Source: an uncultured virus (IMG/VR IMGVR_UViG_3300045996_000435) (Duplodnaviria > Heunggongvirae > Uroviricota > Caudoviricetes). Taken from it: a DNA stretch of 20,000 nucleotides. A program made the translations under genes and the position numbers. Positions 1 to 19,998 of this stretch are shown in pieces (the first letter of the stretch is position 1; every line of letters starts with the position of its first letter). The stretch lies in the IMG/VR virus record IMGVR_UViG_3300045996_000435. One strand, 5' to 3'. The notes under the pieces are model-generated. The model worked only from the letters and a program-made list of their open reading frames with translations. It ran no database searches and was not told the DNA's origin.

Positions 1-26
1 TTGCCAATGAAGATGATGAATATAAA

Positions 27-3000
27 ATGGCAGGTGAGTTGTTTGATCCTAAAACATTAGAGTCAGTACAAAAAGTTGTACAAGCTGCTTTAAAAGATGG
101 AAAGAATAATTTTGTGGATATAATGAAGTTTGCTGCAAAGCATATCTCTAAAGATAAGCTTCAGAATGTTTATAATAAAATGAGAGCTGGTTATGCATTT
201 GTTTATGCACAGCTTTCTGAGAAAGGACAATTAATAGAAGATCCTGCTTTTTTAGTTAACTTAATGAATAACAAGTATACTCTTGACGATATACTTGCTA
301 TGGCTGCTGCTCCTGTAACTCAACAAGAGAAAGTAGTTCCTTATGCAGATTTACGAGAAGAGAATATAGCTAATAGAGATTTTAGAGCTGGTGTTCTTTA
401 TAAAACTGCTGCTCAAGATTTTGAAGTATTGGATATAGATGGTAATAAGATTTATAGTAAAGATATTAAGAAAGAACCAGTAGCTGCAAGACGTAGGAAC
501 TTTTTGTCTTATCTTTATAAAGAAGTTGAGCGTAGTGGTAAAACACCTACAGACTTAGGGTTCTTTGGTCTTATGACTAAAGATAGTCTTGCTTACCCAC
601 ATGATGCAGAAGATGTAGCTTTTTTAACTACTAAGCCTGAAGCAGCTGGTGAAATTATTGTTTTAGTTGATAAAGATTTACAGCCTATTAAAATTAACGA
701 TAAGGGAGAACCTGATGCGAATGGTGAAGTATTGACTATGTACTTCGAGAGTCCTGAAAAATTAAGAAAGAGGGCTGATAAAGAAGGGGATCTTAAGTCA
801 GTATGTAAACTTAATAATTTAATTACTTATTCTCCACAAGGAGATGAGGTATTTGATTTTAATACTGCTAGAGAAATGCTTACTAATGCTGCAGAGAATA
901 TTGAGCATTTAAGAGCAGAAGTAAAAGATAATAAACAAGTACTTGTAACTTTTAATCAAGTTACGCCAGGCATTCGTCAAACCAGTAAAGAAGGTGTAAC
1001 AACTACTTTCTTAATAGGTAAGAATGTTAAAGCCCACTTAATGGATACTCCAATTAAGAAGGGTGGTAATATTGGATACTCAAGTACTGCTAAGAATAAG
1101 AAAGGTCGTTTGGGTTATGCTTATGTAGATTATAAAGGAGACTTTATAGAATTGCAGAGGGATATTTTACCTGATAATATTATAGAACTGATTAGTTATG
1201 TTATTAATAATCGTGATACTATTGATGCTACTACAAAAGAAGAGCTTAAAACATTCTTTAGGAATATCAAGAAAAACTCACAACTAGATATAAATGTTTA
1301 TACTGGTAGGGTTACTTTAGAGGGCACTGTATTAACTCCAGATCAATTTGCTGTTGAATTAAAACGTGCAGTGTTGTCTTTTTCTTCAGATGTTATTAAT
1401 CAGAACTTTAAAGAATTCTATTTAGAAAATGGAGAATTAAAATCAAGGGTAACTCCTTATAATGATTTTATGTTCCGTTATTATAAGATGTTTGTGAAAC
1501 TAGATGAGAATGGTGAACCTTTGTTTGCCAATGCTTATTTAGCATATCAACCTTCTAATGTAATGGAGATTATAAAGGGTGAACAGAATGTAGAAGAAAT
1601 TAAAAAGCAAGAACAAGAAGAAGTTAAAGCAGAAGAAGTTATTACTCCATTAGAAGTAAGAGTAGAAGGTGTTAATAAAACTAAAGAAGAAATCTTAAAA
1701 GAGATTGCTGAGCGTAAAGCTAAACTTCAGAAGAAAGCTGATAATGTAGATGTACGTCTTAGAAAAGATGAAGGTAATATTACTGGATTACCTCGCTCTA
1801 TTTATCTAGAAAATGATACTGATTTAACAGTTAGTCCAGAAGAGCAAGATTGGTTTAAAACTACTCTTGCTGGTGTATATTCTGGTAAGTTTGCTTCTCG
1901 TCATATGAAGCTTGTTAAAGAGCTAATTAATTCAGACTCTTGGGGACTTTTTGCAGAGAGTGGTACGATACTTGTAGAGAACGCTCCTGAAGGTACTTTG
2001 TACCATGAAGCTTGGCATGAGTTTACTCAATTATATCTTACTCTTAAAGAGAAGAAGGCTTTATATAACGAAGCTAGAAAGCAAGGCGAAAGTGATTATC
2101 AAGTAGAAGAAAGATTAGCAGAAGAGTTTAGAGCATACGCACTTAAACCCAGAAAACCTAAATATAGTATATTTGAGAGAATATTAAACTTTATTAAGCA
2201 AACATTCTTTGGTAAAGTATCTGTTGATGTTTTGTTTGATAAGTTATATAAAGGAGAGATTAATAAATATAATCCTTCTATAAATAATATACAGTTTAAG
2301 AGACTTAACGCTGGTATCGCAGATTCAGCAGGAAATGAATTATTCTCTAATAAGAGAACACAAACTCTTATTAAGACAATTGATAAGTTAATTTATGATT
2401 ATATTCATAATGTTCAAGGTTGGTCTTTGTACCGTGTATTCAATGAAGAGCACGTTTTATTTGCTGCTTATACTTATGCTTACAAGCAGTTTATTGATAA
2501 AGACCTTGAGAAGCAGAATCAATTCGAGGAAGCGATTGTAAGAGAAGAAGATCCAGTAAAACTAGAAAAGATTTATGCTGAAATGGAGTCTCATAGAGAT
2601 TTGTATGATAGAGTTATTAATAACTTTACTACAATTCTTGAGCACCATAAGAAGAACTCTAGAACTTTTGTTATTACAGAAGATGAGATTTCTGGTGTAT
2701 ATGATGAAGCTGGAAATATAATCTTTGAAGAAGAGGGTGATGATACTAATACTGAGAAAGCTAGTAAGGTATTTGATCAAAAAGCAGGTAATGAAATTTC
2801 CTCTATTGATGGAGCTAATAAAGAAACTCGAGCTTTAGTTCGGGGACTTGCTCGTAGAGTAGATGAAAATAATATTTATATTAATGAATTTGGTTTTCCA
2901 GAGCTTGTAGATTTTGCTCAAACTTGGAATAACTTAGCACTTAACCTTGCCAATACGTATGAGTTTGATAAGATATTAGTTAAGTTGGATAACTTAAAGA

Positions 3001-6000
3001 ATCGTTATCCGGAATATATTGAGTTACTTAAGATCCTTAATGATTATCGAGTTCATGAAAAAACTGGTCTAGATAAGATATTAATGCTTACAAAGTTTAG
3101 ACAAGACTTCTCTAGAAGCTTTGTTCCAGTATATGAACTTATCTATGATGCTAATACTCTTGAGTATAAAGTAGACGAAACAACTAAGAATAACTTTAAA
3201 GCTATTAAGAAATTATTTGATGATAATTTTATTAGTCGTGATGAAAATAAATATATAAAGAAAGATAAGGATGGTAATAACTATTTAAGTCCTCTTATTT
3301 TAGAAGATTTTAATCCTAATGGGTTTTCTAATAAAGGTACAAGAATTAAATTCTTGGATGCTTTAGGAATTACGTTTTCAGCTCCTGCCATTAAAGATAG
3401 TAGATTTGATGATATCGTAAATAGTTCTAGGCTTACTTTTATTTACAATGGTATTAAGCAATTGCTTGATGCTAATGTAAAGATCATGAACCCAACTGAA
3501 GATCTTAGTAATAATAGTCGTTATGCTAAATTTGGTTTCTTTGGAGAAACTGGAAATCTTAATGCTCTTATTGCAATAGAGTCTAAATATAACTCACTTA
3601 ACCCTACAGCTTCTATGCAGAATGCTGAAGGTAATACTGTGTATGCACTTCAATTAAGAAATGCTATTAGTACTATATCTGATTATTTATCAGATTATGT
3701 AAACTATCCAACTTATCAAGATTTAATTAGTGAACCTCATTTGGCGTTTTTAGATTTTACTAAAAATCCTTATGTTAAGAATTCTATCTGGTTAAACAAT
3801 ATGTTTGTACTAGATGAAGAAAGTATACATTTTGGTAAAAGAAAATCTGTAGATGGTATTTGGAACCCTGAGAAATTAGATCCTGTTGTTATACAGATAG
3901 TCAATTTTAATGGTTTGAATGTTGACGCCGAAGGTCTTGATTTAGGTAAGACAACTACACGTTTGTACGTTGGTGATAAGATGGTTCAGGACTTTACTAC
4001 ATTACTTAAGGCAAGTGGTGGATTTAAAGAAATGATGAGAGCTGGAGATAAATCTAGTGCATTTGCTGTTAAATTCTCTTCTTATAGTCAAGCTTTAAAT
4101 AACCAAAGTAATTTACCAATAGATACTTCTGCATTTAAGAATAATTTGTTTGGAGGTAAGGATTTCTTAAATATAATGAGTGGATACTTATTTGATGAAC
4201 TTAAACGTATTCAAGATTATAAGTATAAGAAAGTAGGTACTGATCTTAAAGCATTTGCTTTAGGTGAAATTAATCTATTTAGAGATTTACTTACTTCTGA
4301 AACTAAAACCTCTATTGTAGAGGCTTTAACAGGAGATGCAGATATTAATACAATTATTAACAATCATGCTGCTAAGTTAAGAACTGAACTAGCTGTTTAC
4401 TTTATTAAACAATTTAATAGTAGAGTTGACAGCTTTAATGATAAGGGTCTTAGAGTTCATATAACAGGTACTGATAAGTTTGGAATGTATCAATTAGGAG
4501 AAATGCCTAAATGGGTTTCTAAAGATTTGATTACTCCTTATAAAGTAGCTGGAGAAGTTATTACTCCTACTTTTAGTCAGTTACTTAGATCTTATATTGT
4601 TAATGCATTTATACTTAATGTAGAGCAAACAAAGATATTTAATGGAGATGGGGCTTTCTATAAAGATTTTCACAAAAGGAATTCTAAAGATAGTGCCACT
4701 AAAACAACGATGACAACTGATTCATTCTTTTTGGATTGGTTAAACTATAGTCCTAATACTAACTTACAGAGTAAACTCCTTGGAGTTTATAATTCTGTTT
4801 CTAATGTAATTAATAGTGTTATCTTTAAAGATAATGAAGTACCTTCAGCTTATATAGATTCTTATAAAAATACAGTAAGGGCTTTGCTTGAAGAAGAATA
4901 CCTTGATCCTGAAAAAATTGAGGAGACTATTAATCGTATAGAAAGTAAGTATGGTAAGAATAATGAAGGGGATGCTCAAGGGTGGATTACTCTTGACTTT
5001 TACAGAACGTTTAAATTGTCTCAAGGTAAATGGTCTACAAAGCATGAAAATGCTTATCGTAAGATTATTATGTCTGAGTTTTATACTAAACAACTAGATA
5101 CAGCGAGTTCTGAACAAGCTCGTAAAGATATACAATCAAAGATAGGAGAGAATAAACTTACTGGAGAAGAGATGGCCTATTTTGTGCCAGTTAAAGCTCA
5201 ATATGCAGGTCCTCTTGTATATAAGGGTCTTTATGCTCCTGCCTTTCATAAGTTCTCCCTTGTGCCTCTAATTCCCTCTCTGATAAGGGGTACAGCACTC
5301 GAGCATCTAAACGAAAAGATGATTCGTAGTAATGTTGGTTATGGTTTGTTCGAGTCAGGGTCTAAGGTAGCTAGTATCCAGAAAGAAGTTAATGGTAAAA
5401 ATGTTCATGAAGATTTCTATTTAGATTATACTTCTAGAACACCTGTAGATCGTAATAGTACTTTTGATACAGTAAATCCAGTTTATAGTCACTTCTTAGG
5501 GGAGCAAGTTAACATTGAACCAAAAACACACTCTGATGTAATCTTTGGAACTCAATTTAGAAAGCTGTTATTTCAGAACCTATATAATCAGGGAGAACCT
5601 TTAGATGCTGAAGTTGGAAAACTTTATCATGAATTTTCTGATGTACTTGCTAAAATGATACAAGTAGAAAAGAAAAGATTGTTTAAAGATTTAGGAATTA
5701 AAGAAATTAAACGTGGTAATGAAACTTACTATGAAGCGGCTAACTATGAAAAACTAGTTGACACTTTAATTCGTGAGGTTAATCGTCGCGATTTAAATGA
5801 TAACGTAAAGAGATACTTAGAATATGATAAGAGTACTGGCAAGTTCAAATATCCTTTAGATGGATCTATGAACAGAAAAGAAATCGAAACTCTTTTAATG
5901 TCTCTTATTAATAATAGATTAGTACGTCAAAAAATGAAGGGAGACTTGATGATTCAAGTTGCATCTTCAGGATTTGAGTCTACTATTAAGCCTGTTTTAG

Positions 6001-9000
6001 CTACTGAAGAAGAAAGGCTAGAATATGGTACAAATGGGTTGCGTACTTATTATTTAAAAGGTGGTGAAGTAAGAGTATCTGAAGTCAAAGTTCCTTTAAC
6101 AGAAGACTTTAAGAACTTACTTTATTTTAAACATACGGATGGTAATCATATTGGAACGTTAGAGCGTCTCAATGAAATGATGAGAAATGAGACTTGGAGA
6201 AAAGAGCACCGAAAATCCTTAAGGATGGTTGGTTATCGTATTCCTACCCAAGGTCTTAATTCTATAGAATCTATGGAAGTTAAAGAATTTTTGCCAGAAG
6301 AAGCTGGTAATATAATTATACTTCCTACGGAAATTGTAACTAAAGCTGGTTCCGACTTTGATATTGATAAACTTTCTATATTTAAACCTTCTATTGCAGT
6401 TAAGAAAAAATTAACTCTTAATGAGAAAGGTAAATGGATTGAGGAAGTAGATACTGCTTACTATGTACGTTACAGAAAAGAGTTTAGAGATTACTATGAA
6501 ATGAAGGATAAAGTAGAAGCTAAGTATGAACCTTTAATACAATCATACAGAAATAAGTATGATCAGTATATGAAGGATTTAGAGTCTATTTATAGGGAAT
6601 TTAAAAGAACTGCTGGCGTAGGTAATATAGAGAATTATGTATTAGAAGTACAAACTCAAATTGAACTTATTAAAGATCAGCGTGATCTTCTTAAAATAGA
6701 GTTAGAATTAACTACTAGTTATGCTGAATGGAAGAAATTAAAATCTTCAGATAAGAAGTATGCAAATTCTTTAGTAAATCTTAACAGTGAATTATTACTT
6801 CTTACAAGTATGATTCATAATCAGAAAGCTTTACTTACTGAAGAGCAGATTGCTAATCTTGAGAGTCTAAACTTAAATATGTCCAAATCTTTACAGGCAG
6901 ATCTTAAATCTTTGCTTAGTAAAGACGGTAAATTATTTAAAGAAAGGCAAGCAGTTCAGAAGAAGTTTAGAGAATTAATTCTTCAGAAGAAAGAAGCTTT
7001 AAGGGAGGCTCTTGATTACAAGAATGGTTTGCAGAATAGGGTAATTGAGATTGCTGATAAGATCATGACAGATGATAGAAACTTTATTCAGGTTATTACT
7101 CCTAATGATACATTCTTAATTAAACCTCTTATTACAGATAAAGGTGGTATTAAAGATAGATTAGGGTTTAATAAAGTTAACTATACTGGTACTAATATCT
7201 ATACTGAAGCGACTCAAGAAGAGAAGTTTCAGGCAGGTCTTGTAGGTAAGAAAGCTTTAGGTATTGCAGCTATAACTAATACTTATATGCAGCTTTTCCA
7301 AAAAGTTAAACTTCATATTAATAGAAATTATACTAATATATTTAAAGATGAGCCTAGTAATCATACTGTCCATCATTATTTATTACCACAAGAATATGCT
7401 GGTATAATGAGAGATGCTAGTGGTAGGGTTGTTGGGTATGATCTTAGTCAGAAGTATGATGCTGAGGGTGAACTTAAATCAGAGTTTGCATCTCAAATGA
7501 TTAATGCTTACGTTGACGTATTAAATGATGATTTCATTTTCTATGGTAATGCTGGTTTGGATGTAGCTCCTGTATTGTTTTACTTAAAGAATGTTGGAGT
7601 TCCTACTAAGACCATTCTACATTTTATTAACCACCCTGTTATAAGAGCTTATATTGCTCAAACACAAGCGTCGAAGTCTATTGTTCTTGAGACAATTAAT
7701 CACTTCGAAACTATGCATGATATTGGAGAAACTGAGCAAGGTGTAGTAAGTAAATTACTTGGTACTAAAGAAAGTGTATGGGCGATTGTAGGTACAGATG
7801 ATTTATCAGAATACTTTAATGGGGAACTATTAAATCAACGAATAGATAACAAGTTAAGCGAAATACCTTTAAGAGAGAAAGCAGCTATACTAGCTCATTA
7901 TCTTGAACTAAAGCAACAAGCAGAAATGCTTAGAAAGTTACAAGCTTCTACTAACTTTGATACTAATACTTTTCAGACTCCAATAGACGCTGATATTCAA
8001 GTGGATATGAAAGGAATGGTTAAGGCTACAAAAATGTTTAATAATGAAGCTCTTGACAGGATAACTGGTGAGACTGTTATTAAAGGGTTTAATGTATCGA
8101 AAGTAGTTAATGATATCTTCGAACAGCTTCTTCCTGTTACAGGGTCTAAGTTCTTTAGGAGTCAAGCTCTTCGCGCATTTAAAGCTATAAGTAAGATTAA
8201 CTTTGAGATTGATCAGAATAAAGTAGTTAAAACATTTACAAATGATTTTCTGCTTTACTTACTTACTAAATATTCTACTGTACAGTTAGGAAACCAAGAA
8301 CAAACTCTTTACAGTTATGTTATGCCTATGTTTGCCTACAATGGACATGGTGTAGATAATAGATTAGCTTCTAAATTAATTAAGTTTAAAGCTGATCCAG
8401 TAAATAGAGACTTAATTAATAAGTATCCTTTAATTCAAAATCTAAAGGCAGAGTATTTTGGTAACTTAGGAAACATTAAATTAACTCGTCAAGATAATTC
8501 CAGTGAAGCTCAAAATTCATTTATTGAGCAGTTTGAGGAATTAATCAGGCATCCTGACAGTAAAGTAAGAACTTTATTTAAGAATATAGCTTTGTTCTCT
8601 ATCTTCCAAAGTGGAGTTACTAAGAGTCCTATATCTTTTACAGATATAATTCCTAGTCACTTTTATACAACTTATATGTTAAAAGCTATAAGTAAGTATA
8701 ATAAACTTAATGAAGGAGAAAAACAAGCTTTATTCCAAGAGTTCTTTGGCAGGTTTTATGTTAACAACTTAGGGCTTTATGGTGAAGTCGCAAGTGTACC
8801 TTCTTATAGGTTTAAGAACTATGGTCCAGATGTTATGGTAGTTACTCCTAAAGGGAATAGTACACAATTCTTTAATGATCAAGATTTTCTTCCACCTGTA
8901 CAAGGACAATTATTTACAAATGATAATTCTAGTATAATTTATTCTAAGTTAGGAGATAAGACTGTATCAGGTAATGTTAAATTAGAATCTTGGTCGCAAT

Positions 9001-11582
9001 TAAAAGATGCTAAAAAAGCATTTACAGATATTTATGGTTCTATCGTACATATAATCTCTACCCGTATACACGGATCTAATGAGCATTTTGGTAATCCATT
9101 TTCTCATGATCCAGCAGGAAAGACTCAAGGACTAATTAAAACTAATACTATTAAAGAAGCTGTACAAAATTATATTGACTGGTTAACAACTAATAAATTT
9201 GAGAGCGTCCAGCCAGGTAGAAGGCAATGGATTATAAATCAACTTAAATCTGAAAACTTAAAAGATAAACCTATTCTTTACTTTAAAGAATTAGGGGAAC
9301 CTTCTCATGCTACGGCCTTAGATTATTTAATTAATAAGTATGATTGGAATAATAATTCTATTACTATTAATAAACAAGAGTTATACACTCAAGATAGATT
9401 AGATAAAGCACTAGGAACTCAAAATACTTTTATGTCTAACTTTCATCAATTAGAAAATCCTATTATTGATGAATTTGGAAATCAATATTGGAATTCTGAA
9501 GGTTACTATATGGCTTTAAGAACTCAAGATCAATCTATTAAAAAAGAAATAGCTCAATTTTCTAAACAAGGTGGTCAAGTAGCTAGAAATGCTAGATCTA
9601 AATATTCTCTCGATATGCATGAGAATAATAGATTAGAGTATATGAGGAAAGCTATTAAAGCTAAATTTGATAATAATCCTAGGTTAAGAGCTGAATTGTT
9701 AAGTACTGGTAATAAAGAGATAATTGAGAAAAATTATTGGAAAGATGATTTGTTTGGTGTCAGAATAGATACAAGGCAAGGCGCTAATATTTTAGGTAAG
9801 CTTTTAATGGAGTATAGATCTACTATTCCTGGAGCCCAAAAAGATTTGTTTAAAGGAGATTCTTTTAAAATAGGTGGACAACAAAATGAAGTTGAAGTTA
9901 ATTATAAACTTAAAATAGTTAGAGCTTTAAATCATCCAAAAACTAAAAGCTTATTTACAAAGTTTTTCAAAAATAACTCTGAAAAATTTTATAATGAACT
10001 TTATAATTTAGGTGTTGGTAAACCTCAAGTAGAGTATTTACAAAATTGGGCAAACCAAAATAATCCACAATCTGTAGAAGATCTTATAATAGGTATACAA
10101 TCTGAATTTGCTTATACAATCGAAATAGAAACTACAGGGGATAGAGAGAGTTTAATTTCTAGAGATAATTTTGTTATTGTTGACCAAGAAGATTTTCTAA
10201 GAGCCGTTCCTTATACAGGAGTGGAATCGTTAGGTACTTATGATTTTGGTTATGGTTCTATTCGACATAATGATAAATATTATTTTTTAGAACTAGGAGA
10301 AGGTCAATATGGAAAAATAGAAAAAATAAAAGCTAAACAATTAAAGAAGTTTACACCGTCAAATTATTATGATAATTTAACTGTTCCTGGAGGAATTAAT
10401 TATAGAGAACATGAAATTAAAACTCCTGAAATTAATTTCTCTATCAAAGGACATGCTAGATTTTCTACACATGAAGGTATAGGATGGTTTAGAACTGATG
10501 ATAAAGAAAAAGCAACTTCAGATAGAAATTATTATAAAAGATATTTGGAGAGTGGTTTATATAAAGGAGAGTACACAGCTTATGAGGATGTTACTGTTGA
10601 TAGGGATTTTAATAAATGGGTAGATAATAAGAAAAAAGAAGATGATTTGTTTGATTCTTCTCAACTTAATACAAGACGTATTTTAGAAATGCAATCTGAT
10701 TTATTTCAAAAAGGTCGAAATAAAGAATTTCTTATTGATACTCCAGTTTTTACAGTAAATAAAGGAGAAGGTGAAACATGGCAGTTATGGAAGAATGATG
10801 GTATATTAAAGCAACAAATAGGTACTTATGATACTGATGCTGCAGCTCAAACAGAACGAGTTCTTGCTCAAAGACAGTATGAAGACGCTAAGCAATCAGA
10901 GAATTTATTTATTCAACTACTTAATAAGGATAATAACTGGATAACTTTCTTTATTAAAGCTATTATACAAGATAGTACTAAAAAAGGATATGATTCTATT
11001 TTATTTCCTCAAGGAGATACTGCTTCTAAAGTTGAAGGTCATGAAACATTAGAAAGTTTTAAACTTGAAAAAGAGAAAGCAATTAAGAACTTAGAAGAGA
11101 TTATAAATAATGGGGGCATTCAGTATGAAGTAATTAGTATGGAAGATGGAGAACCCTATGATTTATATAATACTTTAGATGAAGCTCAGGATGTTCAACG
11201 AGATTTAAATTCTCGATCTACAGATTTTGGTTATAATATAGTAGATCGTACAGCAAACATTGAGGATTTAAAGCGAGAAATAGAACAATACAAAGCTGAA
11301 CTTACTAGACTTAATACTGAAGGATTTACTGCATTAAAACCAATACATAATTTCTATCAAACTATTGTTTATAATATACTTAAAAAGCATGGTTATAATC
11401 CTACAGAAATTAAAGATGAACACAACAATGGTTGGTATGAAGTAAAAATACAACCTTTCTTTAAAGATGATATCTATTTTATTGGAAAAAATACTGAAGA
11501 AAATTTGGAAAATTCAATAAAATTACCTACCTTGCAAGATTCTGAATATTTAGAAATGTTAAAAAAGTGTAAAGGAATATAA
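27..11582 (+). CDS. Giant single-chain virion DNA-dependent RNA polymerase polyprotein (crAss-like, phi14:2 gp66-type) with fused zincin protease and C-terminal accessory domains; may start upstream of the window
   Basis: 3851-aa ORF. Catalytic loop GSDFDIDK (DFDID at 6354-6368) preceded by GYRIPTQG (6231-6254). Upstream motifs GDAQGWIT (~4968), HKFSLVPL (~5247) and FESGSKV (~5349) fit the second barrel half. DFDID in place of DxDGD is characteristic of crAss-like virion RNAPs. The frame is open from base 3 (ANEDDEYK-M), so the start is uncertain. Confidence 0.92.
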   Translation: MAGELFDPKTLESVQKVVQAALKDGKNNFVDIMKFAAKHISKDKLQNVYNKMRAGYAFVYAQLSEKGQLIEDPAFLVNLMNNKYTLDDILAMAAAPVTQQEKVVPYADLREENIANRDFRAGVLYKTAAQDFEVLDIDGNKIYSKDIKKEPVAARRRNFLSYLYKEVERSGKTPTDLGFFGLMTKDSLAYPHDAEDVAFLTTKPEAAGEIIVLVDKDLQPIKINDKGEPDANGEVLTMYFESPEKLRKRADKEGDLKSVCKLNNLITYSPQGDEVFDFNTAREMLTNAAENIEHLRAEVKDNKQVLVTFNQVTPGIRQTSKEGVTTTFLIGKNVKAHLMDTPIKKGGNIGYSSTAKNKKGRLGYAYVDYKGDFIELQRDILPDNIIELISYVINNRDTIDATTKEELKTFFRNIKKNSQLDINVYTGRVTLEGTVLTPDQFAVELKRAVLSFSSDVINQNFKEFYLENGELKSRVTPYNDFMFRYYKMFVKLDENGEPLFANAYLAYQPSNVMEIIKGEQNVEEIKKQEQEEVKAEEVITPLEVRVEGVNKTKEEILKEIAERKAKLQKKADNVDVRLRKDEGNITGLPRSIYLENDTDLTVSPEEQDWFKTTLAGVYSGKFASRHMKLVKELINSDSWGLFAESGTILVENAPEGTLYHEAWHEFTQLYLTLKEKKALYNEARKQGESDYQVEERLAEEFRAYALKPRKPKYSIFERILNFIKQTFFGKVSVDVLFDKLYKGEINKYNPSINNIQFKRLNAGIADSAGNELFSNKRTQTLIKTIDKLIYDYIHNVQGWSLYRVFNEEHVLFAAYTYAYKQFIDKDLEKQNQFEEAIVREEDPVKLEKIYAEMESHRDLYDRVINNFTTILEHHKKNSRTFVITEDEISGVYDEAGNIIFEEEGDDTNTEKASKVFDQKAGNEISSIDGANKETRALVRGLARRVDENNIYINEFGFPELVDFAQTWNNLALNLANTYEFDKILVKLDNLKNRYPEYIELLKILNDYRVHEKTGLDKILMLTKFRQDFSRSFVPVYELIYDANTLEYKVDETTKNNFKAIKKLFDDNFISRDENKYIKKDKDGNNYLSPLILEDFNPNGFSNKGTRIKFLDALGITFSAPAIKDSRFDDIVNSSRLTFIYNGIKQLLDANVKIMNPTEDLSNNSRYAKFGFFGETGNLNALIAIESKYNSLNPTASMQNAEGNTVYALQLRNAISTISDYLSDYVNYPTYQDLISEPHLAFLDFTKNPYVKNSIWLNNMFVLDEESIHFGKRKSVDGIWNPEKLDPVVIQIVNFNGLNVDAEGLDLGKTTTRLYVGDKMVQDFTTLLKASGGFKEMMRAGDKSSAFAVKFSSYSQALNNQSNLPIDTSAFKNNLFGGKDFLNIMSGYLFDELKRIQDYKYKKVGTDLKAFALGEINLFRDLLTSETKTSIVEALTGDADINTIINNHAAKLRTELAVYFIKQFNSRVDSFNDKGLRVHITGTDKFGMYQLGEMPKWVSKDLITPYKVAGEVITPTFSQLLRSYIVNAFILNVEQTKIFNGDGAFYKDFHKRNSKDSATKTTMTTDSFFLDWLNYSPNTNLQSKLLGVYNSVSNVINSVIFKDNEVPSAYIDSYKNTVRALLEEEYLDPEKIEETINRIESKYGKNNEGDAQGWITLDFYRTFKLSQGKWSTKHENAYRKIIMSEFYTKQLDTASSEQARKDIQSKIGENKLTGEEMAYFVPVKAQYAGPLVYKGLYAPAFHKFSLVPLIPSLIRGTALEHLNEKMIRSNVGYGLFESGSKVASIQKEVNGKNVHEDFYLDYTSRTPVDRNSTFDTVNPVYSHFLGEQVNIEPKTHSDVIFGTQFRKLLFQNLYNQGEPLDAEVGKLYHEFSDVLAKMIQVEKKRLFKDLGIKEIKRGNETYYEAANYEKLVDTLIREVNRRDLNDNVKRYLEYDKSTGKFKYPLDGSMNRKEIETLLMSLINNRLVRQKMKGDLMIQVASSGFESTIKPVLATEEERLEYGTNGLRTYYLKGGEVRVSEVKVPLTEDFKNLLYFKHTDGNHIGTLERLNEMMRNETWRKEHRKSLRMVGYRIPTQGLNSIESMEVKEFLPEEAGNIIILPTEIVTKAGSDFDIDKLSIFKPSIAVKKKLTLNEKGKWIEEVDTAYYVRYRKEFRDYYEMKDKVEAKYEPLIQSYRNKYDQYMKDLESIYREFKRTAGVGNIENYVLEVQTQIELIKDQRDLLKIELELTTSYAEWKKLKSSDKKYANSLVNLNSELLLLTSMIHNQKALLTEEQIANLESLNLNMSKSLQADLKSLLSKDGKLFKERQAVQKKFRELILQKKEALREALDYKNGLQNRVIEIADKIMTDDRNFIQVITPNDTFLIKPLITDKGGIKDRLGFNKVNYTGTNIYTEATQEEKFQAGLVGKKALGIAAITNTYMQLFQKVKLHINRNYTNIFKDEPSNHTVHHYLLPQEYAGIMRDASGRVVGYDLSQKYDAEGELKSEFASQMINAYVDVLNDDFIFYGNAGLDVAPVLFYLKNVGVPTKTILHFINHPVIRAYIAQTQASKSIVLETINHFETMHDIGETEQGVVSKLLGTKESVWAIVGTDDLSEYFNGELLNQRIDNKLSEIPLREKAAILAHYLELKQQAEMLRKLQASTNFDTNTFQTPIDADIQVDMKGMVKATKMFNNEALDRITGETVIKGFNVSKVVNDIFEQLLPVTGSKFFRSQALRAFKAISKINFEIDQNKVVKTFTNDFLLYLLTKYSTVQLGNQEQTLYSYVMPMFAYNGHGVDNRLASKLIKFKADPVNRDLINKYPLIQNLKAEYFGNLGNIKLTRQDNSSEAQNSFIEQFEELIRHPDSKVRTLFKNIALFSIFQSGVTKSPISFTDIIPSHFYTTYMLKAISKYNKLNEGEKQALFQEFFGRFYVNNLGLYGEVASVPSYRFKNYGPDVMVVTPKGNSTQFFNDQDFLPPVQGQLFTNDNSSIIYSKLGDKTVSGNVKLESWSQLKDAKKAFTDIYGSIVHIISTRIHGSNEHFGNPFSHDPAGKTQGLIKTNTIKEAVQNYIDWLTTNKFESVQPGRRQWIINQLKSENLKDKPILYFKELGEPSHATALDYLINKYDWNNNSITINKQELYTQDRLDKALGTQNTFMSNFHQLENPIIDEFGNQYWNSEGYYMALRTQDQSIKKEIAQFSKQGGQVARNARSKYSLDMHENNRLEYMRKAIKAKFDNNPRLRAELLSTGNKEIIEKNYWKDDLFGVRIDTRQGANILGKLLMEYRSTIPGAQKDLFKGDSFKIGGQQNEVEVNYKLKIVRALNHPKTKSLFTKFFKNNSEKFYNELYNLGVGKPQVEYLQNWANQNNPQSVEDLIIGIQSEFAYTIEIETTGDRESLISRDNFVIVDQEDFLRAVPYTGVESLGTYDFGYGSIRHNDKYYFLELGEGQYGKIEKIKAKQLKKFTPSNYYDNLTVPGGINYREHEIKTPEINFSIKGHARFSTHEGIGWFRTDDKEKATSDRNYYKRYLESGLYKGEYTAYEDVTVDRDFNKWVDNKKKEDDLFDSSQLNTRRILEMQSDLFQKGRNKEFLIDTPVFTVNKGEGETWQLWKNDGILKQQIGTYDTDAAAQTERVLAQRQYEDAKQSENLFIQLLNKDNNWITFFIKAIIQDSTKKGYDSILFPQGDTASKVEGHETLESFKLEKEKAIKNLEEIINNGGIQYEVISMEDGEPYDLYNTLDEAQDVQRDLNSRSTDFGYNIVDRTANIEDLKREIEQYKAELTRLNTEGFTALKPIHNFYQTIVYNILKKHGYNPTEIKDEHNNGWYEVKIQPFFKDDIYFIGKNTEENLENSIKLPTLQDSEYLEMLKKCKGI
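1830..2290 (+). other. Zincin-like metallopeptidase domain within the RNAP polyprotein (boundaries approximate)
   Basis: GTLYHEAWHEF (HExxH at 2004-2018) followed ~30 aa later by EERLAEEFRAY (candidate third Zn ligand, 2106-2129) and an amphipathic helix IFERILNFIKQTFF. Confidence 0.85.
8934..9345 (+). other. DUF4326-like domain within the RNAP polyprotein (cysteine-free variant)
   Basis: STR...HFGNPF (GNPF 9090-9101)...EAVQNYIDWL...LKDKPILYFKELGEPSHATALDYLIN follows the DUF4326 layout (R...GNPF...Y..WL...L.GK.L.C.C....CH...L), with the Cys positions replaced. Confidence 0.6.
9420..9821 (+). other. NADAR (YbiA-like) domain within the RNAP polyprotein
   Basis: FMSNF...NSEGYYMA...MRKAIKAKFDNNPRLRAELLSTGNKEIIEKNYWKDDLFG...GANILGKLLMEYR matches the YbiA/NADAR pattern (SNF; E..Y/F.A; KF.....L...LL.T....L.E....D..WG....G.N.LG..LM..R). 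Confidence 0.88.
9880..11460 (+). other. Polyvalent-protein-associated domain of unknown function (PGG.NYRE / GWFR.DD / E.QSD / GYD.I.FP motifs)
   Basis: Motif series VPGGINYRE (10383-10409), KGHARF, GWFRTDD, RILEMQSDLFQKG (E at 10686) and WITFFIKAIIQDSTKKGYDSILFP (~10938-11009). I recognise this series from large phage virion/polyvalent proteins but cannot name the family reliably. Confidence 0.5.
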
Positions 11583-14500
11583 TGACCTGCCCTAATTTTA
11601 AAGACTCGAATTACGCAAAGCTAGAAGCTAAAGTTGGCTCATTGATGGCTTATAAATTGTGGTATCATTATGATGAACCTACAATACATAATGTTATTAC
11701 TGAAGCAGAAGCTCGCTGGTATAAAACTAAACAGAGACTTATAGATAAATTCCACCTAAAGAAGTGGCCCTCTATACCGGAGGATCTCTTTGTGGAGATA
11801 GATTCTTGGATGAGAAATCATACTAAGTATCAGGAATTTTATCCTGTATATGAACCATGGGCTAAAAAGTCTGGGTACTTAAATCTGAAATTTAAAGACA
11901 ATAAAGTTCAATCTGAATTTAAAGATGAAGAGGCAAACTTAAAAGATTTAGGAGTTCGATTTAAACAATGGAAAGATAGTCATCCTCCACAATTGGATAT
12001 TTTTACACAAGAAGTTTATAAAATTGGGGGTAGTTCTTCTTTAGTGGATGAATTAAACAATGCACGTACGAGCAGAACTAAGATGTCGTTTGATCAAATG
12101 ATCGAAGAAGCAAGAATCCAGCTCGAAAAACTGCTAGGTGTAAACAAAAAAGGTTTAAAGCTAGAAGAACAAACAAAAAAAGACCTATACGAACTACTAA
12201 AATTCTTTAGAGATCCCAGTAAATTAGGGCAACTAGAGACAATGACTACGTACTTTGTAGAGGTTAATACTATTCTAGAGCATTATAGAGATAGAGCTTT
12301 AAAGGCCAGTGAAATTGATACATTATCAGCTAAGATTATGGAGCTATTGTTCCTTAAACAAATGGCTAATTCATTTAAACCTTTTATTGATCAACTTAAT
12401 GCTGAATTTGCTGGTACACCTAGAGACAATAAAGTAAAAGAGTTGCTTGAGAATATGAACAATAGTATTACTACTATTGAATCTATTTATAGTAGAGATG
12501 TATTTCAGTCAGTAGTAGATTCTTTATATGAAACTACTGATCCTGTTGTACAGAATTTACAAAAGGAATTAGCAGACGAAATTGATTATCTAAGGAAACG
12601 CCAAGATATTCTTAAACAAAGAGGAGATCAAAAACGTGTTGATAAGTTAGAAAAGAAAATAGAAGATCTACAAAAAAGAAAAGGTAAAATTATACCTACA
12701 AAAGATTTGTTAGCTTTAACTCTTTCGGGACAAAATGGGGATGCTAATTTTATATCCATGTGGCTTGAGGCGACTATTGCTTCAGGTGATCCTATTGTGG
12801 CAGGGTTTGCTAAGAAGATTAAAGATTCCTTTAATACTATTAGAGTAAACATGCTACCTATGAAGAATGACGCTCAAACGATACTTGATAAGTATTCACG
12901 CATAACTGGAAGGGATAAAGCTAATAATGCTAAATTCTTCGAAGGATTATATGAAGTTATAGATGTACCTACACATGATGACGATGGTAAAATAACACAT
13001 AAGAAAGCCTATTCTTTAATAGGTGAGTTTAGTGCTCAATTTGATAAGGATGAAGCTGATTTTAAAGCTAAAATACAAACCCTTAAAGATGAACATAAAG
13101 ACGACGAAGCTGCTGCCGTAGAAAAAGAATATGAGGAATGGTTAGGTATTTGGGCTGAAAGACGTTATACAAATGAATGGTATGAAGCTTCTAAGCTATT
13201 AACACCTAAAGCAAAAGCAGCCCAAGATGAACTACTAGAACAAATTACTCGCATTACTAGAGGCCCTAATCGTAATAACTTATCAGAGATAGAACTAGAT
13301 GAACTAGAAGAGCTCTGGGGTCGTTATAAAGCTTTAGGTTCATTAGTTTACTTTGGAACAGGTGTACGTAAAACTGGAGATGATTTAGAGATGGCACTTT
13401 CTGTGCGAGCTTATCGTAAAGAAAGAGCTAAAATGCGTACCTTCGAGCTTACTGAAAACGGTAAAAGTAACTTTGAAATTGCACAAAAGAGACAAAAAGC
13501 TTTCTTAGATGCAGGTCGAATTACTCAAGAACAGTATGATAAGTGGTTAAGAAGATTTACGTCTCTTCGTATTGACCCTGAATTTTTTAAGAAGCGTCAA
13601 GCAATACTTGATCGTATTAATGCTGTAATGTCTAAGATACCTAAAGACCTTTTAGGTTCAAGGGAAAGTGTTACAGAGCTTTGGGAGAATCTTATTTCTG
13701 TAGGTAACAACAACAGGGATGAAGATGGTATTATAGATGGCGGAGAGTTAAGTGAAAATGAATTTTATAATGCTCGTTATTATGAGTTAAAAATAGACCA
13801 ATTAAAAGAAGACTTCTTACGTCTTAGTGGACTAACTACTAATCAACAAAAAGAACTTCAGACACTGGTTGATATTCCTTTAGAGGATAGGACTGAAGAA
13901 CAGAATGAAAGAATAACTGAATTATTTAATTCTAAAGCTTGGTTTAAAAGTGAATTAGCTAAACACGTAAGTTCAGCAGAAATAAAGGCTTTATTTGGTT
14001 ATTGGGAATCTCTTGGACAAATCCAAACTAAACAGCCTACTAAGTACTATGAAGAAAGATATAACTTCGAATTCGAAGCTTATTTTAATAAGATTCCTGA
14101 ATCAATAGATTGGAGTCTTAATGAAAAAATGGAAGCCTTTAAACAAAGTAATTGGTATAAAGAAAATCATATAACAAGGACTCGCAAAACTAAGAATGCA
14201 GATGAAAGTTTTGAGATGGAAGAATATGAAGAACCTTTATATATATGGAATCATGTGCTTCCTAGCGATGAAAGTTATATACAAGAAGGATACCCTTCTA
14301 TACATTTCCAAGAAATTGTAGTACACGATATTTATAAGAACCCTAACTTCCAAGAACTAGATACCAACGGTGGATACCATACTCCTAAAGCTATTGTAGA
14401 TAACAAACCTTCTAAATACCTTAATAGTAATTTCCAAGAACTTAAAGGAAAAGCTGCTACTGGAGATGCTGTTGCTAAAGTACAGTTAGAAATGTTAGAA

Positions 14501-16349: not shown

Positions 16350-16385
16350 AAAAAAAGAGGAGAGTTTTTAGGCTCTCCTTTTTTA
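16350..16385. terminator. Bidirectional intrinsic (rho-independent) terminator between convergent modules
   Basis: A7 run (16350-16356), stem AGGAGAG (16358-16364) / CTCTCCT (16373-16379), 8-nt loop TTTTTAGG (extendable by G-U pairs on the + strand), T run to 16384. Lies between convergent stops at 16330 (+) and 16383-16385 (-). Confidence 0.85.
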
Positions 16386-17009
16386 TTCAGCAACTGCATT
16401 TCGTTCTGCAATCCATTGTTTACGAAAAGTCATAACAGCAGGATCATTAAATCTTGCAATCTCTTCTACTTTTCCGGGAGTCTTACTGTATAATGTTTTA
16501 CAGTTTATAACTTTCTCTTTCCATTCCTCAAATGCTTCATCTGTTATATCATTCCCTTTTATAGCAATAATATTATCAGATGACCCTTCTGCTAAAGAAT
16601 CTGCCAAATCAGTTATTGGTAAATACATAGCATTATGTAAAGTTCTAGTTCTAGGAACAAGAGTCATTAAAAAGATCTTACTCTTTTTTACCGAACCCTC
16701 ATATATTACACAAACATTAATTTTACGAGCTGCTCCAAGACTTGCAAAGTTAAAATCACAAAGTTCTCCAATAGAGGTTGCAATTGTATCTCGAAGATTT
16801 TCATCTAATACACTTAAAGTTACATAGTAACGTTTAAGAGTATCTACATTAATCATTTGTTTAATATAATGTATAAACTGTTGTCTTTGCTGTTCTTTGG
16901 CTGCTACAGGTTTTGCCGCATTATAGGGACTTTGCGAAATATAAGGGTCACTCATTTTTCGTCTTGGTATATTATCCATCATATGTATTGTATATTTATT
17001 TTTTAGCAT
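16383..17009 (-). CDS. Hypothetical protein (208 aa)
   Basis: Full-length ORF coupled to the thyX stop by a TAATG overlap at 17007-17011; ends at the terminator. No recognisable motif. Alternative Met starts lie at residues 10, 11 and 19. Confidence 0.8.
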   Translation of the reverse strand: MLKNKYTIHMMDNIPRRKMSDPYISQSPYNAAKPVAAKEQQRQQFIHYIKQMINVDTLKRYYVTLSVLDENLRDTIATSIGELCDFNFASLGAARKINVCVIYEGSVKKSKIFLMTLVPRTRTLHNAMYLPITDLADSLAEGSSDNIIAIKGNDITDEAFEEWKEKVINCKTLYSKTPGKVEEIARFNDPAVMTFRKQWIAERNAVAE

Positions 17010-17713
17010 TACATGAAATTTCCTTTAAGGTCATTAAAGTTATTTGTTGTTTCTGCTAAATTTGGAAATTCTTTAATCATAAAGTATCCTACACGATTAG
17101 CTACCTCTCTTATCTCTTTTTGAGCATGATCATCTAAACGTTGATTTAGAACACTCATCCAACTTCTAACTGTTCCATGCCCAATAAGATTAGTAGTAGA
17201 GGCTAAAGGCATAATGCGTCTAGCACATTCTTTTGCTACTCCAGCTTTAATTAAATCTTGATAAAATCCCTGCACTATAGCTAGTACCATGTCTTTCATC
17301 TGATTTGCTTTAACTGGATGCCCCTCAAATAATCCATAAGTATCTGGTACTTCAGAATCAAATTCCTCGTCTCCTACTTGCCGATTTGTTTTTCCTTGTT
17401 TTCTAAACTCTATAGGCTCAATACTCATAATTTCAGAATATCTTTGGCTATATTCTTGCCAATCAACATTCCAATGTCGAAGTAGTTGTGTACCTATATC
17501 TCTACTTGTTTCTATCTCAAAATTAAGTGAGACTAAATCAAGAGGAGACCAATGCTTATTCTTTATAAGATAACTTAAAAGCTTGGGCATGGTCTCCCTG
17601 TTTAATTTATTTTCAGGGTTACTTATTCTTGCTTGAGCTATAATAAACTCTTCAGGACTTAAATCCTTATATTCACCCAGTGGTTTGGTTATTCCTATTA
17701 ATTTGACGTTCAC
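17009..17713 (-). CDS. thyX: FAD-dependent thymidylate synthase ThyX
   Basis: ARIS...LLSYLIKNKHWSPLD, SRDIGTQLLRHWNVDWQEYSQRY (ThyX signature variant), GVAKECARRIMP and QRLDDHAQKEIR. GTG start. Confidence 0.93.
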   Translation of the reverse strand: MNVKLIGITKPLGEYKDLSPEEFIIAQARISNPENKLNRETMPKLLSYLIKNKHWSPLDLVSLNFEIETSRDIGTQLLRHWNVDWQEYSQRYSEIMSIEPIEFRKQGKTNRQVGDEEFDSEVPDTYGLFEGHPVKANQMKDMVLAIVQGFYQDLIKAGVAKECARRIMPLASTTNLIGHGTVRSWMSVLNQRLDDHAQKEIREVANRVGYFMIKEFPNLAETTNNFNDLKGNFM

Positions 17714-17716
17714 TAT

Positions 17717-17983
17717 TTATAATTCTACTACACTAAGTCCTACGTATGAATATGATAATGTTGTATGCTCTTCCATAGCTGTTCTGCTGTTCACATTCTC
17801 TTTGATACTTATGACAGCTTGTTTTTTAGCTTCCATAAGTTCTTTTTTCTCTGCTTCAGCTTGTTCTGTAGTTTTAAACTTAGTAGCAAAATCTTTGTTA
17901 CTTACTGTTCCGTAAGTTTTAACATCTCCTTCCTCTACAATGGTTATGTACTTTCCTTTGTTGTTTAATAAACCGTAATTCAT
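17717..17983 (-). CDS. Hypothetical protein (88 aa)
   Basis: ATGA overlap with the upstream ORF (17980-17983); stop lies 3 nt before the thyX start; codon style matches neighbours. Confidence 0.8.
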   Translation of the reverse strand: MNYGLLNNKGKYITIVEEGDVKTYGTVSNKDFATKFKTTEQAEAEKKELMEAKKQAVISIKENVNSRTAMEEHTTLSYSYVGLSVVEL

Positions 17984-18237
17984 CTTGCAAAATTATTTCC
18001 TTCTTCTAATGTATTAATTCTATCCCATGTAAATGCTATGTTTCTTGTACAATCATATGCTTTTATTTTTACATTAAAGCCATGCTCATAAATTCCCATA
18101 ACTTTACCTTTAACTGTAGGATAATCAGTAGGACAAACCCAAACAGTCTGTCCTACTTTTATCTTCTTTAGTCTGTCTGCTTTATTTAATCTTTGATTAA
18201 GTTTACATATCTTCTCGATTGCTTCTGGACTAAACAT
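17980..18237 (-). CDS. Hypothetical protein (85 aa), possible small SH3/KOW-like beta-barrel
   Basis: Fits the operon and has an AT-rich leader. KIKVGQTVWV...VKGKVMGI...FNVKI...IAFTWDRI resembles SH3-like barrel strand spacing (inference only). Confidence 0.75.
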   Translation of the reverse strand: MFSPEAIEKICKLNQRLNKADRLKKIKVGQTVWVCPTDYPTVKGKVMGIYEHGFNVKIKAYDCTRNIAFTWDRINTLEEGNNFAR

Positions 18238-18253
18238 CTTTCTAATTTAAATA

Positions 18254-18400
18254 TTATTCATCTTCCTCTTCCCATAGATAAGAATAATTATCTATTTCAG
18301 CTTCATCTAATTTACTAACTAGATGTCGTATAGAACTCCATCCACCTTGTGCTATAGATCGAGCTATGAGGTTTATTTTTTCGTCTTGTGTTATTTCCAT
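18254..18400 (-). CDS. Small hypothetical protein (48 aa), absent from the ORF track
   Basis: Translated by hand: MEITQDEKINLIARSIAQGGWSSIRHLVVKLDEAEIDNYSYLWEEEDE*. Its ATG overlaps the polymerase stop (TAATG, 18398-18402), and it fills the gap to within 16 nt of the next start. Confidence 0.75.
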   Translation of the reverse strand: MEITQDEKINLIARSIAQGGWSSIRHLVSKLDEAEIDNYSYLWEEEDE

Positions 18401-19998
18401 TATTTTGACCAAGCTTTTCTGATATTTAAATCACTATTTCCTTGTAGAGTAGTTAAAAAATAGGTAATAGACTCTGCCATTAAACGAGGTATTTCTTTAG
18501 AATATTGATCAATATATTTATCATTCATACAAACTAAATTCTGATCATAAATTGACATTGTAATCCAACCCAATTCATCTTCTTTTATACCAAGTTCATT
18601 AGCTTTATCTGTAAACCATTTATCAATTTTAATGAGTGCAATCTTAATAGAGTCTGCACCAGTACCTTGAATACTCATATTTGCAGCGTCCCCATAAGCT
18701 TTTTCTGGCTCATCAAAATATCTTCTTCTACCTAATTTATTGGCAACGATATAACCATACTGCTGACATTCCTTTACTTTACCTTTTAAAAATTTAATCA
18801 AAGTAGGTAAAGCTCTATCTAGTGCAGTAGATATTTCCATTGCTCTGTCAAATCTTTTATCTGCAGGTACGTGATTAACTAAATATTCATTTAATACATT
18901 TTGTACTCTCTTAGCTCCACCTAAATATATTTTAGCAAAAAGACAAGACTTATGAACATCTCGTAGTTTCTTTACGTTATACTTAATTCCATCTATTTCT
19001 AAATCTTCATCTTTATTCTTAATTTCTACTTTCCTACCAAATATAATAGAATAGGAAATAGAAGCTAGAAATGAGTGGTGGTCAAAGCCTTCTTGGAATG
19101 CTTTAATTAACACAGGCTCTTTAGAAAAATCCCCAGCTATGACAAGTTCTTGACCTACCATATCTGAGTCTATAAAGCTATATCCAGGGTCTGGAATAAA
19201 TATAGACCTCATATCCTTATTCTTAGGGATATTGGCTAGATTCGCTCCTAATGTCTTTTTAACCACCTCTGAAGAGGTTAGTCTACCTGTATCTGTAAAA
19301 CATTGTCCATAATTGGTTCTTAACCTACCTCTTTCGTCAAGAGCATCTAGGAATTTAACACCATAAGTCTCTAATAGTTTCGAAAGTTCTCTATACTTTA
19401 AAAGGAGAGTAAGAAAGTCTTTTAATGGTACATCTGGATTATTTGTTAAATACAGATTAAGAGGCTCTTCTCCATAACTTATTTTACCTTTATCATCAGT
19501 TGGTTTAGGTATATCAAGTTTAGTAAAGAGATCATCTATTTGACTAGAAGAACTATAATTTACATTAAACTTATTTTGGTTCTCATATATTACAGGTTCT
19601 CCTCCAAAGATATCTAACTGTGCAACTGCTTCTTTTTTACGTGGATTAGTGTACTTACCTCCAGATAGTCTAGTATAAGTATAAGATAATCTAGTTATCT
19701 CTGCATCCATTTTAAGTGTTGTTTCAGTAAGTTCTTTTTTCCACTTTTCTATATTTTGTTTATGCTTATTGGTATCCACTAAACAACCTTTAAACTCCAT
19801 CTTAACTAATACAGGAGTAAGTTTGTTTTCTAATTTAATTATTGGATCTAAGCCTCTTTCTTTTATATAAGCTAATTGAGCTTTATGTAAAGGAATAAGA
19901 TAGATAGTATCTCTACCAGCATATTCAAGTTGTTCTTTAGTAAGTTCTACCCCTAATTTAAGACCCCAAAATGATTTTTGTAAATCTTTTTTAGATTC
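18400..19998 (-). CDS. polA: Family A DNA polymerase with 3'-5' exonuclease domain (5'-truncated by the window edge)
   Basis: TDTGRLTSS...NLANIP, motif A DSDMVGQELV, motif B RDVHKSCLFAKIY, LGRRRYF, ANMSIQGTGADSIK, motif C IYDQNL. The frame stays open upstream of the track's Met at 19800 to the window edge and reads ...LTKEQLEYAGRDTIYL...LENKLTPVLVKMEFKG (ExoIII YAxxD motif). Confidence 0.92.
   Translation of the reverse strand, partial: ESKKDLQKSFWGLKLGVELTKEQLEYAGRDTIYLIPLHKAQLAYIKERGLDPIIKLENKLTPVLVKMEFKGCLVDTNKHKQNIEKWKKELTETTLKMDAEITRLSYTYTRLSGGKYTNPRKKEAVAQLDIFGGEPVIYENQNKFNVNYSSSSQIDDLFTKLDIPKPTDDKGKISYGEEPLNLYLTNNPDVPLKDFLTLLLKYRELSKLLETYGVKFLDALDERGRLRTNYGQCFTDTGRLTSSEVVKKTLGANLANIPKNKDMRSIFIPDPGYSFIDSDMVGQELVIAGDFSKEPVLIKAFQEGFDHHSFLASISYSIIFGRKVEIKNKDEDLEIDGIKYNVKKLRDVHKSCLFAKIYLGGAKRVQNVLNEYLVNHVPADKRFDRAMEISTALDRALPTLIKFLKGKVKECQQYGYIVANKLGRRRYFDEPEKAYGDAANMSIQGTGADSIKIALIKIDKWFTDKANELGIKEDELGWITMSIYDQNLVCMNDKYIDQYSKEIPRLMAESITYFLTTLQGNSDLNIRKAWSK

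Follow-up and report, generated by a model that had tools for sequence, protein, structure and literature searches.

Results

Two giant cargo genes and a pair of similar segments

In a 20,000-nucleotide stretch of DNA from an uncultured virus of the Caudoviricetes (IMG/VR record IMGVR_UViG_3300045996_000435), referred to below as the window and having a G+C content of 31.7%, two long open reading frames (ORFs) follow each other on the plus strand and encode the giant proteins P0001 and P0002 (Table 1). The TAA stop codon of P0001 overlaps the ATG start codon of P0002 as TAATG at positions 11580–11584, which places P0002 in the -1 frame; the counterparts of the two genes are separate genes in phages phi14:2 and crAss001. 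Each protein carries one of two similar 14-residue segments. Copy 1, QKDLFKGDSFKIGG, stands in P0001 between a NADAR domain and a C-terminal module of about 520 amino acids (aa), and copy 2, QLDIFTQEVYKIGG, stands in P0002 between a variable N-terminal leader and the conserved body of the protein. The original prediction, made from the letters of the window, held that these segments and several weaker copies form a shared recognition code at domain borders, either a protease cleavage site or a capsid-loading or ejection signal, one half of which resembles the beta-clamp-binding motif. We found this partly confirmed: the observation is real and the placement at borders is right, while the likeness is statistically weak and the specific code as proposed is unsupported.

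Both proteins have counterparts in the RNA-polymerase cargo block of Crassvirales, which consists of gp65-gp66-gp67 in phi14:2 and of gp47, gp49 and gp50 in crAss001. P0002 matched 68 records in the phage collection, all of them from Crassvirales, all at less than 60% identity and all within aa 927–1510. Among them were phi14:2 gp65 (g065, 'RNA polymerase associated protein') and crAss001 gp49, both of which match P0002 aa 942–1457; a hydrophobic stretch lies at aa 1438. P0001 resembles gp66 and gp50 around the RNA-polymerase motif DFDID at aa 2118, with 24% identity to phi14:2 gp66 over P0001 aa 1478–2134 and 24–25% identity to phi14:2 gp66 and crAss001 gp50 around the centre of the DFDID region. 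The counterparts are virion proteins, according to passages of the papers describing those phages. In contrast to this likeness, identity to the cultured phages is only 23–26%, and they lack both the NADAR-plus-module payload and the 14-residue segment. The C-terminus of phi14:2 gp66 reads ...ENILFSQNN...QECK.

The best relative found for P0001 is P0064, a protein of 4312 aa that is 44% identical over P0001 aa 548–2940. P0001 aa 14–560 also match P0064 aa 810–1344, at 24% identity, and P0001 therefore extends upstream of the window. P0001 is a fused polyprotein of the kind mentioned in the phi14:2 preprint. It carries a zincin-type HEAWH at aa 668, in a context that resembles the HEAFH of other polyvalent proteins; no Pfam peptidase family matched P0001 at E ≤ 0.01. 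A search of representatives gave no close orthologue of the C-terminal part of P0001, the best non-self matches being 45–50% identical over parts of the query. No match was obtained when viral contigs were scanned with the polymerase-end alignment and with P0064, when genome contigs were scanned with P0064, or when P0001 aa 2600–2986 were compared with phage records by tblastn.

The two copies lie at module borders

Both strings were found exactly at the positions given by the original prediction, outside any recognised domain and at true module borders. They align without a gap, with 7 of 14 residues identical and 3 conservatively replaced, and their flanks are unrelated. Copy 1 begins four residues past the Pfam end of the NADAR domain (aa 3275), and the module starts directly after it, mostly at aa 3293–3299 in local alignments; the HMMER matches that reach the module start begin at query residues 163–170, equivalent to aa 3292–3299. 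Copy 2 marks the place where P0002 becomes homologous to P0003, its sole close relative (62% identity). The alignment of these two proteins begins at P0002 aa 132, with the body starting between aa 132 and 137, and only 21 columns are invariant in the first 134 residues of their leaders.

The likeness of the copies was compared with random expectation. In a BLASTP comparison of P0001 with P0002 the segment scored 21.9 bits (E = 1.4), level with a meaningless second segment. Aligned without gaps, the two copies reach a BLOSUM62 score of 38, one less than a different and meaningless pair (39); the best score in 200 shuffles averaged 38.2 (standard deviation 2.7, maximum 47), and 77 of the 200 reached 39. 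The underlying DNA agrees at 27 of 42 bases, with third-base differences in the Ile codon and in both Gly codons, and shows no trace of recent duplication.

Conservation of the segment among relatives is partial. At the place of copy 2, P0003 has PDQLDLFDKNIFGFGIG, in which the first half is kept (QLDLF) and the second half has drifted. When the two copies were used as a query, this site was the top match in P0003 (score 25.0, which 3.6% of shuffles also reached). The best match in P0064 scored 21.5, a value reached by 14.6% of shuffles, and was not located at a seam. The segment was also sought in 149 other, non-redundant proteins that have the module: the best match of the protein lay no more than 35 aa upstream of the module in 3 of them, against 1.81 expected, and the two halves taken separately gave 2 and 0, against 2.31 expected for each. 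As such, the 14-residue segment thus characterises neither the module family nor P0064, the closest relative of the giant protein. Distant relatives of P0002 (P0004–P0014 and the second ORF of the related locus L001) have no such motif near their N-termini. The proposal of a specific 14-residue code was thus not supported: the pair is at chance level, the segment is unmatched in P0064 and it is not tied to borders elsewhere. Of the points on which the prediction was to stand or fall, enrichment over shuffles is absent, location inside folded domains was not observed, and conservation is partial.

Regular-expression tests built from the copies themselves are circular and carry no weight beyond two extra matches to [FY]K[IVLM][GA]G; YKVAG at P0001 aa 1513, which matches this pattern, is not kept in P0064. 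The weaker copies named in the original prediction have the right coordinates, and two of them, FKDDIYFIGK and QGQLF, do lie at seams; the DUF4326 label that it attached to the stretch after QGQLF finds no more than faint backing in Pfam (E 0.25; 12.5 bits, where the cut-off is 25). The third, DDEYKMAG, sits just before a homology block that begins at P0001 aa 14 and P0064 aa 810.

Homology between relatives breaks at the seams

In five comparisons the breakpoints of homology coincide with seams: the P0001/L001 end, the P0001/P0064 polymerase end, the P0001/P0064 module start, P0002/P0003, and the leader of P0003 against P0186, P0249 and P0119. The polymerase core of P0001 ends in ...FLPPVQGQLF. 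Homology with the giant protein of L001 stops at this Q..LF (...NLPAQYSLF in L001), and the two proteins differ afterwards. The polymerase end of P0064 (PSYRYKNY...NDQPLRLF) aligns to QGQLF of P0001 at LF and leads straight into the module via QPLRLFYGGNPNE-VNY (YGGNPNE-VNYSLK). Module homology between P0001 and P0064 begins at GG, the GG..NE-VNY of P0001 aligning to YGGNPNEVNY. P0001 thus resembles a P0064 that has received, between LF and GG, an insert made up of the DUF4326-like part and NADAR. The insert has Q..LF on both sides and ends in QKDLF...GG.

Related elements recur at other borders. In P0064 two near-identical LFYGG seams, NDQPLRLFYGGNP and NSKDLILFYGGSP, flank the module. This pair is the second-best 13-residue self-match of the protein, with a score of 44 against 39.0 in 40 shuffles (standard deviation 2.6, maximum 45). 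The best self-match joins DAFGALNPIFNHY in the polymerase region (aa 2632) to EGFGALRPIYNFY in the module (aa 4208) and scores 48, above all 40 shuffles. In the giant protein of L001 (ORF 3..9470) a different seam, [ST]TQSST[SN], occurs at aa 2098, 2261, 2417 and 2598 (approximately nucleotides 6290–7810) and separates modules of about 160 aa, one of them P-loop-like and one a cpYpsA SLOG domain by Pfam. All four copies are identical over about 18 bases of their DNA, and the best single pair of L001 seams scores 37, below the best shuffle (39). Exchange of cassettes by recombination could be driven by this DNA-level repeat. The L001 motif differs from that of the window in sequence and in having four copies in one protein, whereas the window has two good copies and no DNA-level repeat. 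A short sequence repeated at several borders beyond chance was not found in the window, and the case is marginal in P0064.

Of 150 non-redundant proteins, 9 (P0001 among them) have the half-motif Q..[LM]F in the 30 aa upstream of the module. Random 30-mers give 2.75, and 1 of 300 resamples reached the observed 9. A general enrichment of Q..[LM]F in polyvalent proteins was considered and rejected: there are 357 occurrences in 240 proteins, but 239 of them are the in-module site E-x-QSDLF, and the 118 outside the module compare with a shuffle mean of 116.6.

Table 1. Positions of the cargo genes, their parts and the border elements in the window.
Feature	Position	Strand	Remarks
Giant cargo protein P0001	3..11582	+	at least 3859 aa; ORF open at the 5' end
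DDEYKMAG, weak copy internal to P0001	12..35	+	faces QQNFKFGT of P0064 (aa 803)
QGQLF, last conserved element of the RNA-polymerase core (seam)	8901..8915	+	from the L001 and P0064 alignments
NADAR domain	9420..9827	+	aa 3140–3275; PF08719, E 2.7e-17; phrog_1017
Copy 1, QKDLFKGDSFKIGG	9837..9878	+	P0001 aa 3279–3292; seam between NADAR and module
Widespread unnamed polyvalent-protein module, about 520 aa	9897..11480	+	P0001 aa 3299–3826
FKDDIYFIGK, C-terminal border element of the module (seam)	11460..11489	+	aligns to KDLILFYGG of P0064
gp65-like cargo protein P0002	11582..16330	+	1582 aa; relative of phi14:2 gp65 and crAss001 gp49
Variable N-terminal leader of P0002	11582..11989	+	aa 1–136; begins MTCPNF
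Copy 2, QLDIFTQEVYKIGG	11990..12031	+	P0002 aa 137–150; seam between leader and conserved body

The C-terminal module of P0001 and the leader of P0002

The module at the C-terminus of P0001 is widespread, with 318 matches at E ≤ 0.001 and 356 cluster representatives at E ≤ 1e-30. No Pfam family was found for it, and a Protein Atlas look-up returned unnamed clusters only, at scores of 0.83–0.84, which are below the meaningful level. In an alignment of 27 module sequences the invariant residues include a G-H-A, an I-G-W, a Q-S-D-L-F-Q and an E-G-H stretch, among others, a pattern that suggests an enzyme; the internal QSDLF at aa 3564 belongs to the family-conserved E-x-QSDLF. At the C-terminal border, the P0001 segment FKDDIYFIGKNTEE, which contains FKDDIYFIGK, aligns to the second P0064 seam. 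A hydrophobic-aromatic triplet, admittedly a loose pattern, follows the last strand of the module by 6–24 aa in 80 of 156 non-redundant relatives. In the window (11415–11500) and in relatives, the last strand (of the DEYGNTWNEV type) is followed by 6–9 polar residues and then by the hydrophobic-aromatic stretch, often with a Gln next (ILFQ, IYFQ, ILLQ, IFLQ), after which the sequences diverge. This conserved end-of-module element is unstructured in the AlphaFold2 model.

The MTCPNF-type start of P0002 (M-x-CPN) is common to the N-termini of many polyvalent proteins. Its first residues (window 11582–11690), MTCPNFKDSNYAKLEAKVGSLMAY, form an M-x-CPN-x-N-S-x-x-W..LV..G..A mini-domain, and the same mini-domain opens many polyvalent proteins in which the 520-aa module follows directly. 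The leader of P0003 is homologous to those of P0249 (E 2e-13), P0186 (2e-11) and P0119 (1e-3). It leads directly into the module in P0249 and P0186, the junction in P0186 being APKTLFNATPRIYNTGE-IRYTLK; in P0119 the module begins at aa 222. 'DSFK.G' was tried as the conserved N-terminal edge of the module and rejected, since it is true only in the lineage with the M-x-CPN leader ([DE][ST]F[KR]G-VNA). A search with P0002 aa 1–165 recovered only P0002 itself among 208 candidates, and a metagenome scan with the P0002/P0003 alignment gave no match.

Terminal cysteines and minus-strand genes

Cysteine makes up 0.06% of the residues of these giant proteins (P0001, P0002 and relatives) and is concentrated at their ends. 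It is present within M-x(0-4)-C in 217 of the 251 proteins that start with Met and among the last six residues in 45 of 253 proteins, about 0.3% being expected in either case. In the window (11568–11590), Cys 3856 of P0001, the stop codon and Cys 3 of P0002 follow one another. P0002 has one Cys in 1582 aa (C3), P0003 has one (C4), and P0064 has one in 4312 aa (C4311); phi14:2 gp66 begins with MAC and ends with QECK. The terminal cysteines may be a tether, holding the cargo proteins in a disulfide chain, or a processing residue. The word 'cysteine' is absent from the text of the two main papers, including the main text of Iyer et al. 2017 (PMC5512222).

On the minus strand (16383–19998) lie ThyX (PF02511, E 1.4e-35) and a family A DNA polymerase (PF00476, E 2.2e-39) whose ORF is open at the window end, adjoined by three small ORFs without a family match.

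Discussion

At about even confidence, we read the two copies as degenerate inter-module seams of the two cargo polyproteins of a crAss-like phage. The cargo would be a fused gp67/gp66-type RNA-polymerase polyprotein together with its gp65-type partner, packaged in the virion and injected into the host. Each seam would open with [DQ]-x-[LI]-F, a short hydrophobic ending of the module upstream, pass into a short polar stretch and close with a Gly-Gly hinge in front of the next module. Such seams would let modules fold, unfold and cross the tail channel independently, and the breakpoints described above show that they are sites of evolutionary module exchange. The likeness of the copies might come partly from shared descent of a leader-seam-module layout and partly from constraints common to linkers, and a dedicated reader of the 14-residue sequence would not be needed. 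The border position of the copies, the coincidence of seams with breakpoints and the partial conservation are direct observations; the hinge and the shared descent are what we propose to account for them.

P0001 has much in common with the polyvalent proteins as described in the main text of Iyer et al. 2017 (PMC5512222), which are giant multi-module proteins that are delivered with the DNA and whose modules are shuffled between relatives. The parts shared with P0001 are a zincin-type HExxH, a polymerase, NADAR and unnamed large modules. That main text mentions neither linkers nor the clamp, and hence no junction motif was found described there; unlike in that account, the junctions analysed here carry short, lineage-specific sequence elements.

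Several results weigh against seams of the kind proposed. The likeness of the two copies is no greater than chance, and shared descent is therefore not demonstrated. Within P0001 aa 2900–3859 no self-repeat rose above shuffles, and the borders are not all alike, in that no seam element stands where the DUF4326-like stretch meets NADAR. Upstream of the module, [LI]F-x(3-6)-[FY]-x(1-3)-G was present in 3 of 150 proteins against 0.88 expected, a count equalled in 18 of 300 resamples, and a hydrophobic-aromatic pair 4–20 aa upstream was present in only 55 of 150, so that there is no conserved aromatic anchor at this edge across the non-redundant set. The AlphaFold2 models of P0001 aa 3262–3859 (27 aligned sequences) and P0002 aa 1–330 (2 sequences) have a mean predicted local distance difference test score (pLDDT) of 55.0 and 46.7, respectively. 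Copy 1 (model residues 18–31) lacks secondary structure and has a pLDDT below 50, and the module's first helix begins at model residue 43; copy 2 is likewise below 50, with a short helix predicted over P0002 aa 138–144 and the lowest block of the model at aa 141–150. These low values are weak evidence for linkers because both models are poor throughout. Finally, P0002 and P0003 share P-x-QLD[IL]F exactly, beside leaders that cannot be aligned, and this could instead mean that a specific reader exists, which would speak for the rival readings considered below.

Pure chance is a strong rival: two unrelated domain edges or linkers, with neither origin nor function in common, might simply look alike among 5441 residues that are encoded by AT-rich DNA and rich in Lys, Asp, Phe and Gly. 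The BLASTP and shuffle results (E = 1.4, and a score of 38 at the shuffle mean with a meaningless pair at 39) are what it predicts, as are a DNA likeness that does not go beyond the codons (27/42), the lack of a significant match in P0064 or of a border association in the 149 proteins, and the unenriched Q..[LM]F outside the module (118 against 116.6). We judge it rather unlikely. Against it, both copies lie exactly at module borders, and the first half of copy 2 is kept at the matching place in P0003. The seam that precedes this module in P0064 also retains LF and GG, other relatives have related seams, and Q..[LM]F is over-represented just upstream of the module (9/150 against 2.75; 1/300 resamples).

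Cleavage is another way to account for border elements: the seams would be cut by the zincin-type peptidase of P0001 or by another phage protease, and the modules would be released in the capsid or after injection. It is plausible because proposals are in print and P0001 carries an HExxH. Iyer et al. 2017 (PMC5512222) proposed that polyvalent proteins are processed by embedded zincin-like peptidases, and passages of the phi14:2 preprint (10.1101/2020.03.07.982082) describe fused polyproteins as 'likely cleaved' while leaving open whether proteolysis is needed. At all payload borders but one, moreover, the seams fall in stretches predicted to be non-globular. However, the residues around the putative scissile bond vary between junctions and between relatives, with no one site pattern, and the natural ends of split relatives bear Cys motifs instead of LF..GG. 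The virion RNA polymerase of N4, which has the same kind of peptidase, is packaged uncut according to PMC5512222, and the text of the crAss001 paper, its mass-spectrometry tables aside, makes no mention of cleavage or proteolysis. No paper on cleavage sites in crAss-like polyproteins was found in a literature search, and we consider a protease site improbable.

The resemblance of the Q.D[LI]F half to the beta-clamp-binding motif held for one copy, in that QKDLF fits the pentapeptide Q-x-[SDE]-[LM]-F and QLDIF departs from it at position 4. Q-x-[DE]-[LI]-F might act as a tether by which the polymerase and its partner, once injected, are held to the host's sliding clamp on DNA. This idea is attractive because QLDLF is the strengthened form of the clamp motif, as used for E. 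coli Pol III alpha (PMC3664792), and because the phage transcription factors Mor and MuC use Qx[D/E][L/M]F, with the clamp being required for late transcription (10.1101/2025.01.04.631326). Like the known motifs (QL[SD]LF; Mor/MuC), the elements here are pentapeptides that come after Pro or Gly in probably flexible stretches of low model confidence, and there is the precedent in phage transcription. QLDLF of P0003 also fits, and L001 has QYSLF at its polymerase end. Differences from the known motifs are the Ile of P0002 and the lack of enrichment outside the module in the 240 related proteins. A pattern of five residues readily arises at random. P0001 and P0002 together hold Q..[LIM]F at 5 places where 2.1 would be expected (P 0.05), and one of the five is the conserved in-module site (QSDLF) and another a conserved core site (QTKIF). 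The polymerase end is QPLRLF in P0064 and ENILF in phi14:2. Only one close relative was found per site; the pentapeptide is kept in P0003, and P0064 lacks the NADAR junction. No link between Crassvirales and the sliding clamp was found among the matches listed in a literature search. Tethering to the clamp appears very improbable, and there is correspondingly little prospect that QKDLF, QLDIF/QLDLF and perhaps QGQLF/QYSLF are working clamp-binding motifs that act in early transcription. If they were, the host clamp would serve a crAss-like phage as the anchor for its injected virion RNA polymerase and the partner protein at the start of early transcription, an injected-protein counterpart of the clamp-dependent transcription of T4 and Mu.

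A signal for capsid loading or ejection, read by the portal, the scaffold or the tail channel, is hardly credible. Both proteins are related to virion proteins of phi14:2 and crAss001, and copy 2 closes an N-terminal leader, which is where the internal proteins of T4 have their targeting sequence. Against this, copy 1 lies at least 3279 residues from the start of its protein, the motif is missing from relatives that have other leaders, and it is tied to no virion part.

No phages of the human gut are more abundant than Crassvirales. It is an open question, as passages of the phi14:2 preprint (10.1101/2020.03.07.982082) set out, whether the giant polymerase polyproteins that they inject are cut up at all and how these become active. 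The terminal cysteines and the DNA-level repeat of the L001 seams are stronger, as side observations, than the shared 14-residue segment. Sequence elements at module borders would give concrete sites for virion proteomics and mutagenesis, although the case for them is weak in this window. What the inter-module seams proposed here offer is the module plan of a divergent lineage and a shortlist of seams, together with the terminal cysteines and a seam repeat at the DNA level in a relative.

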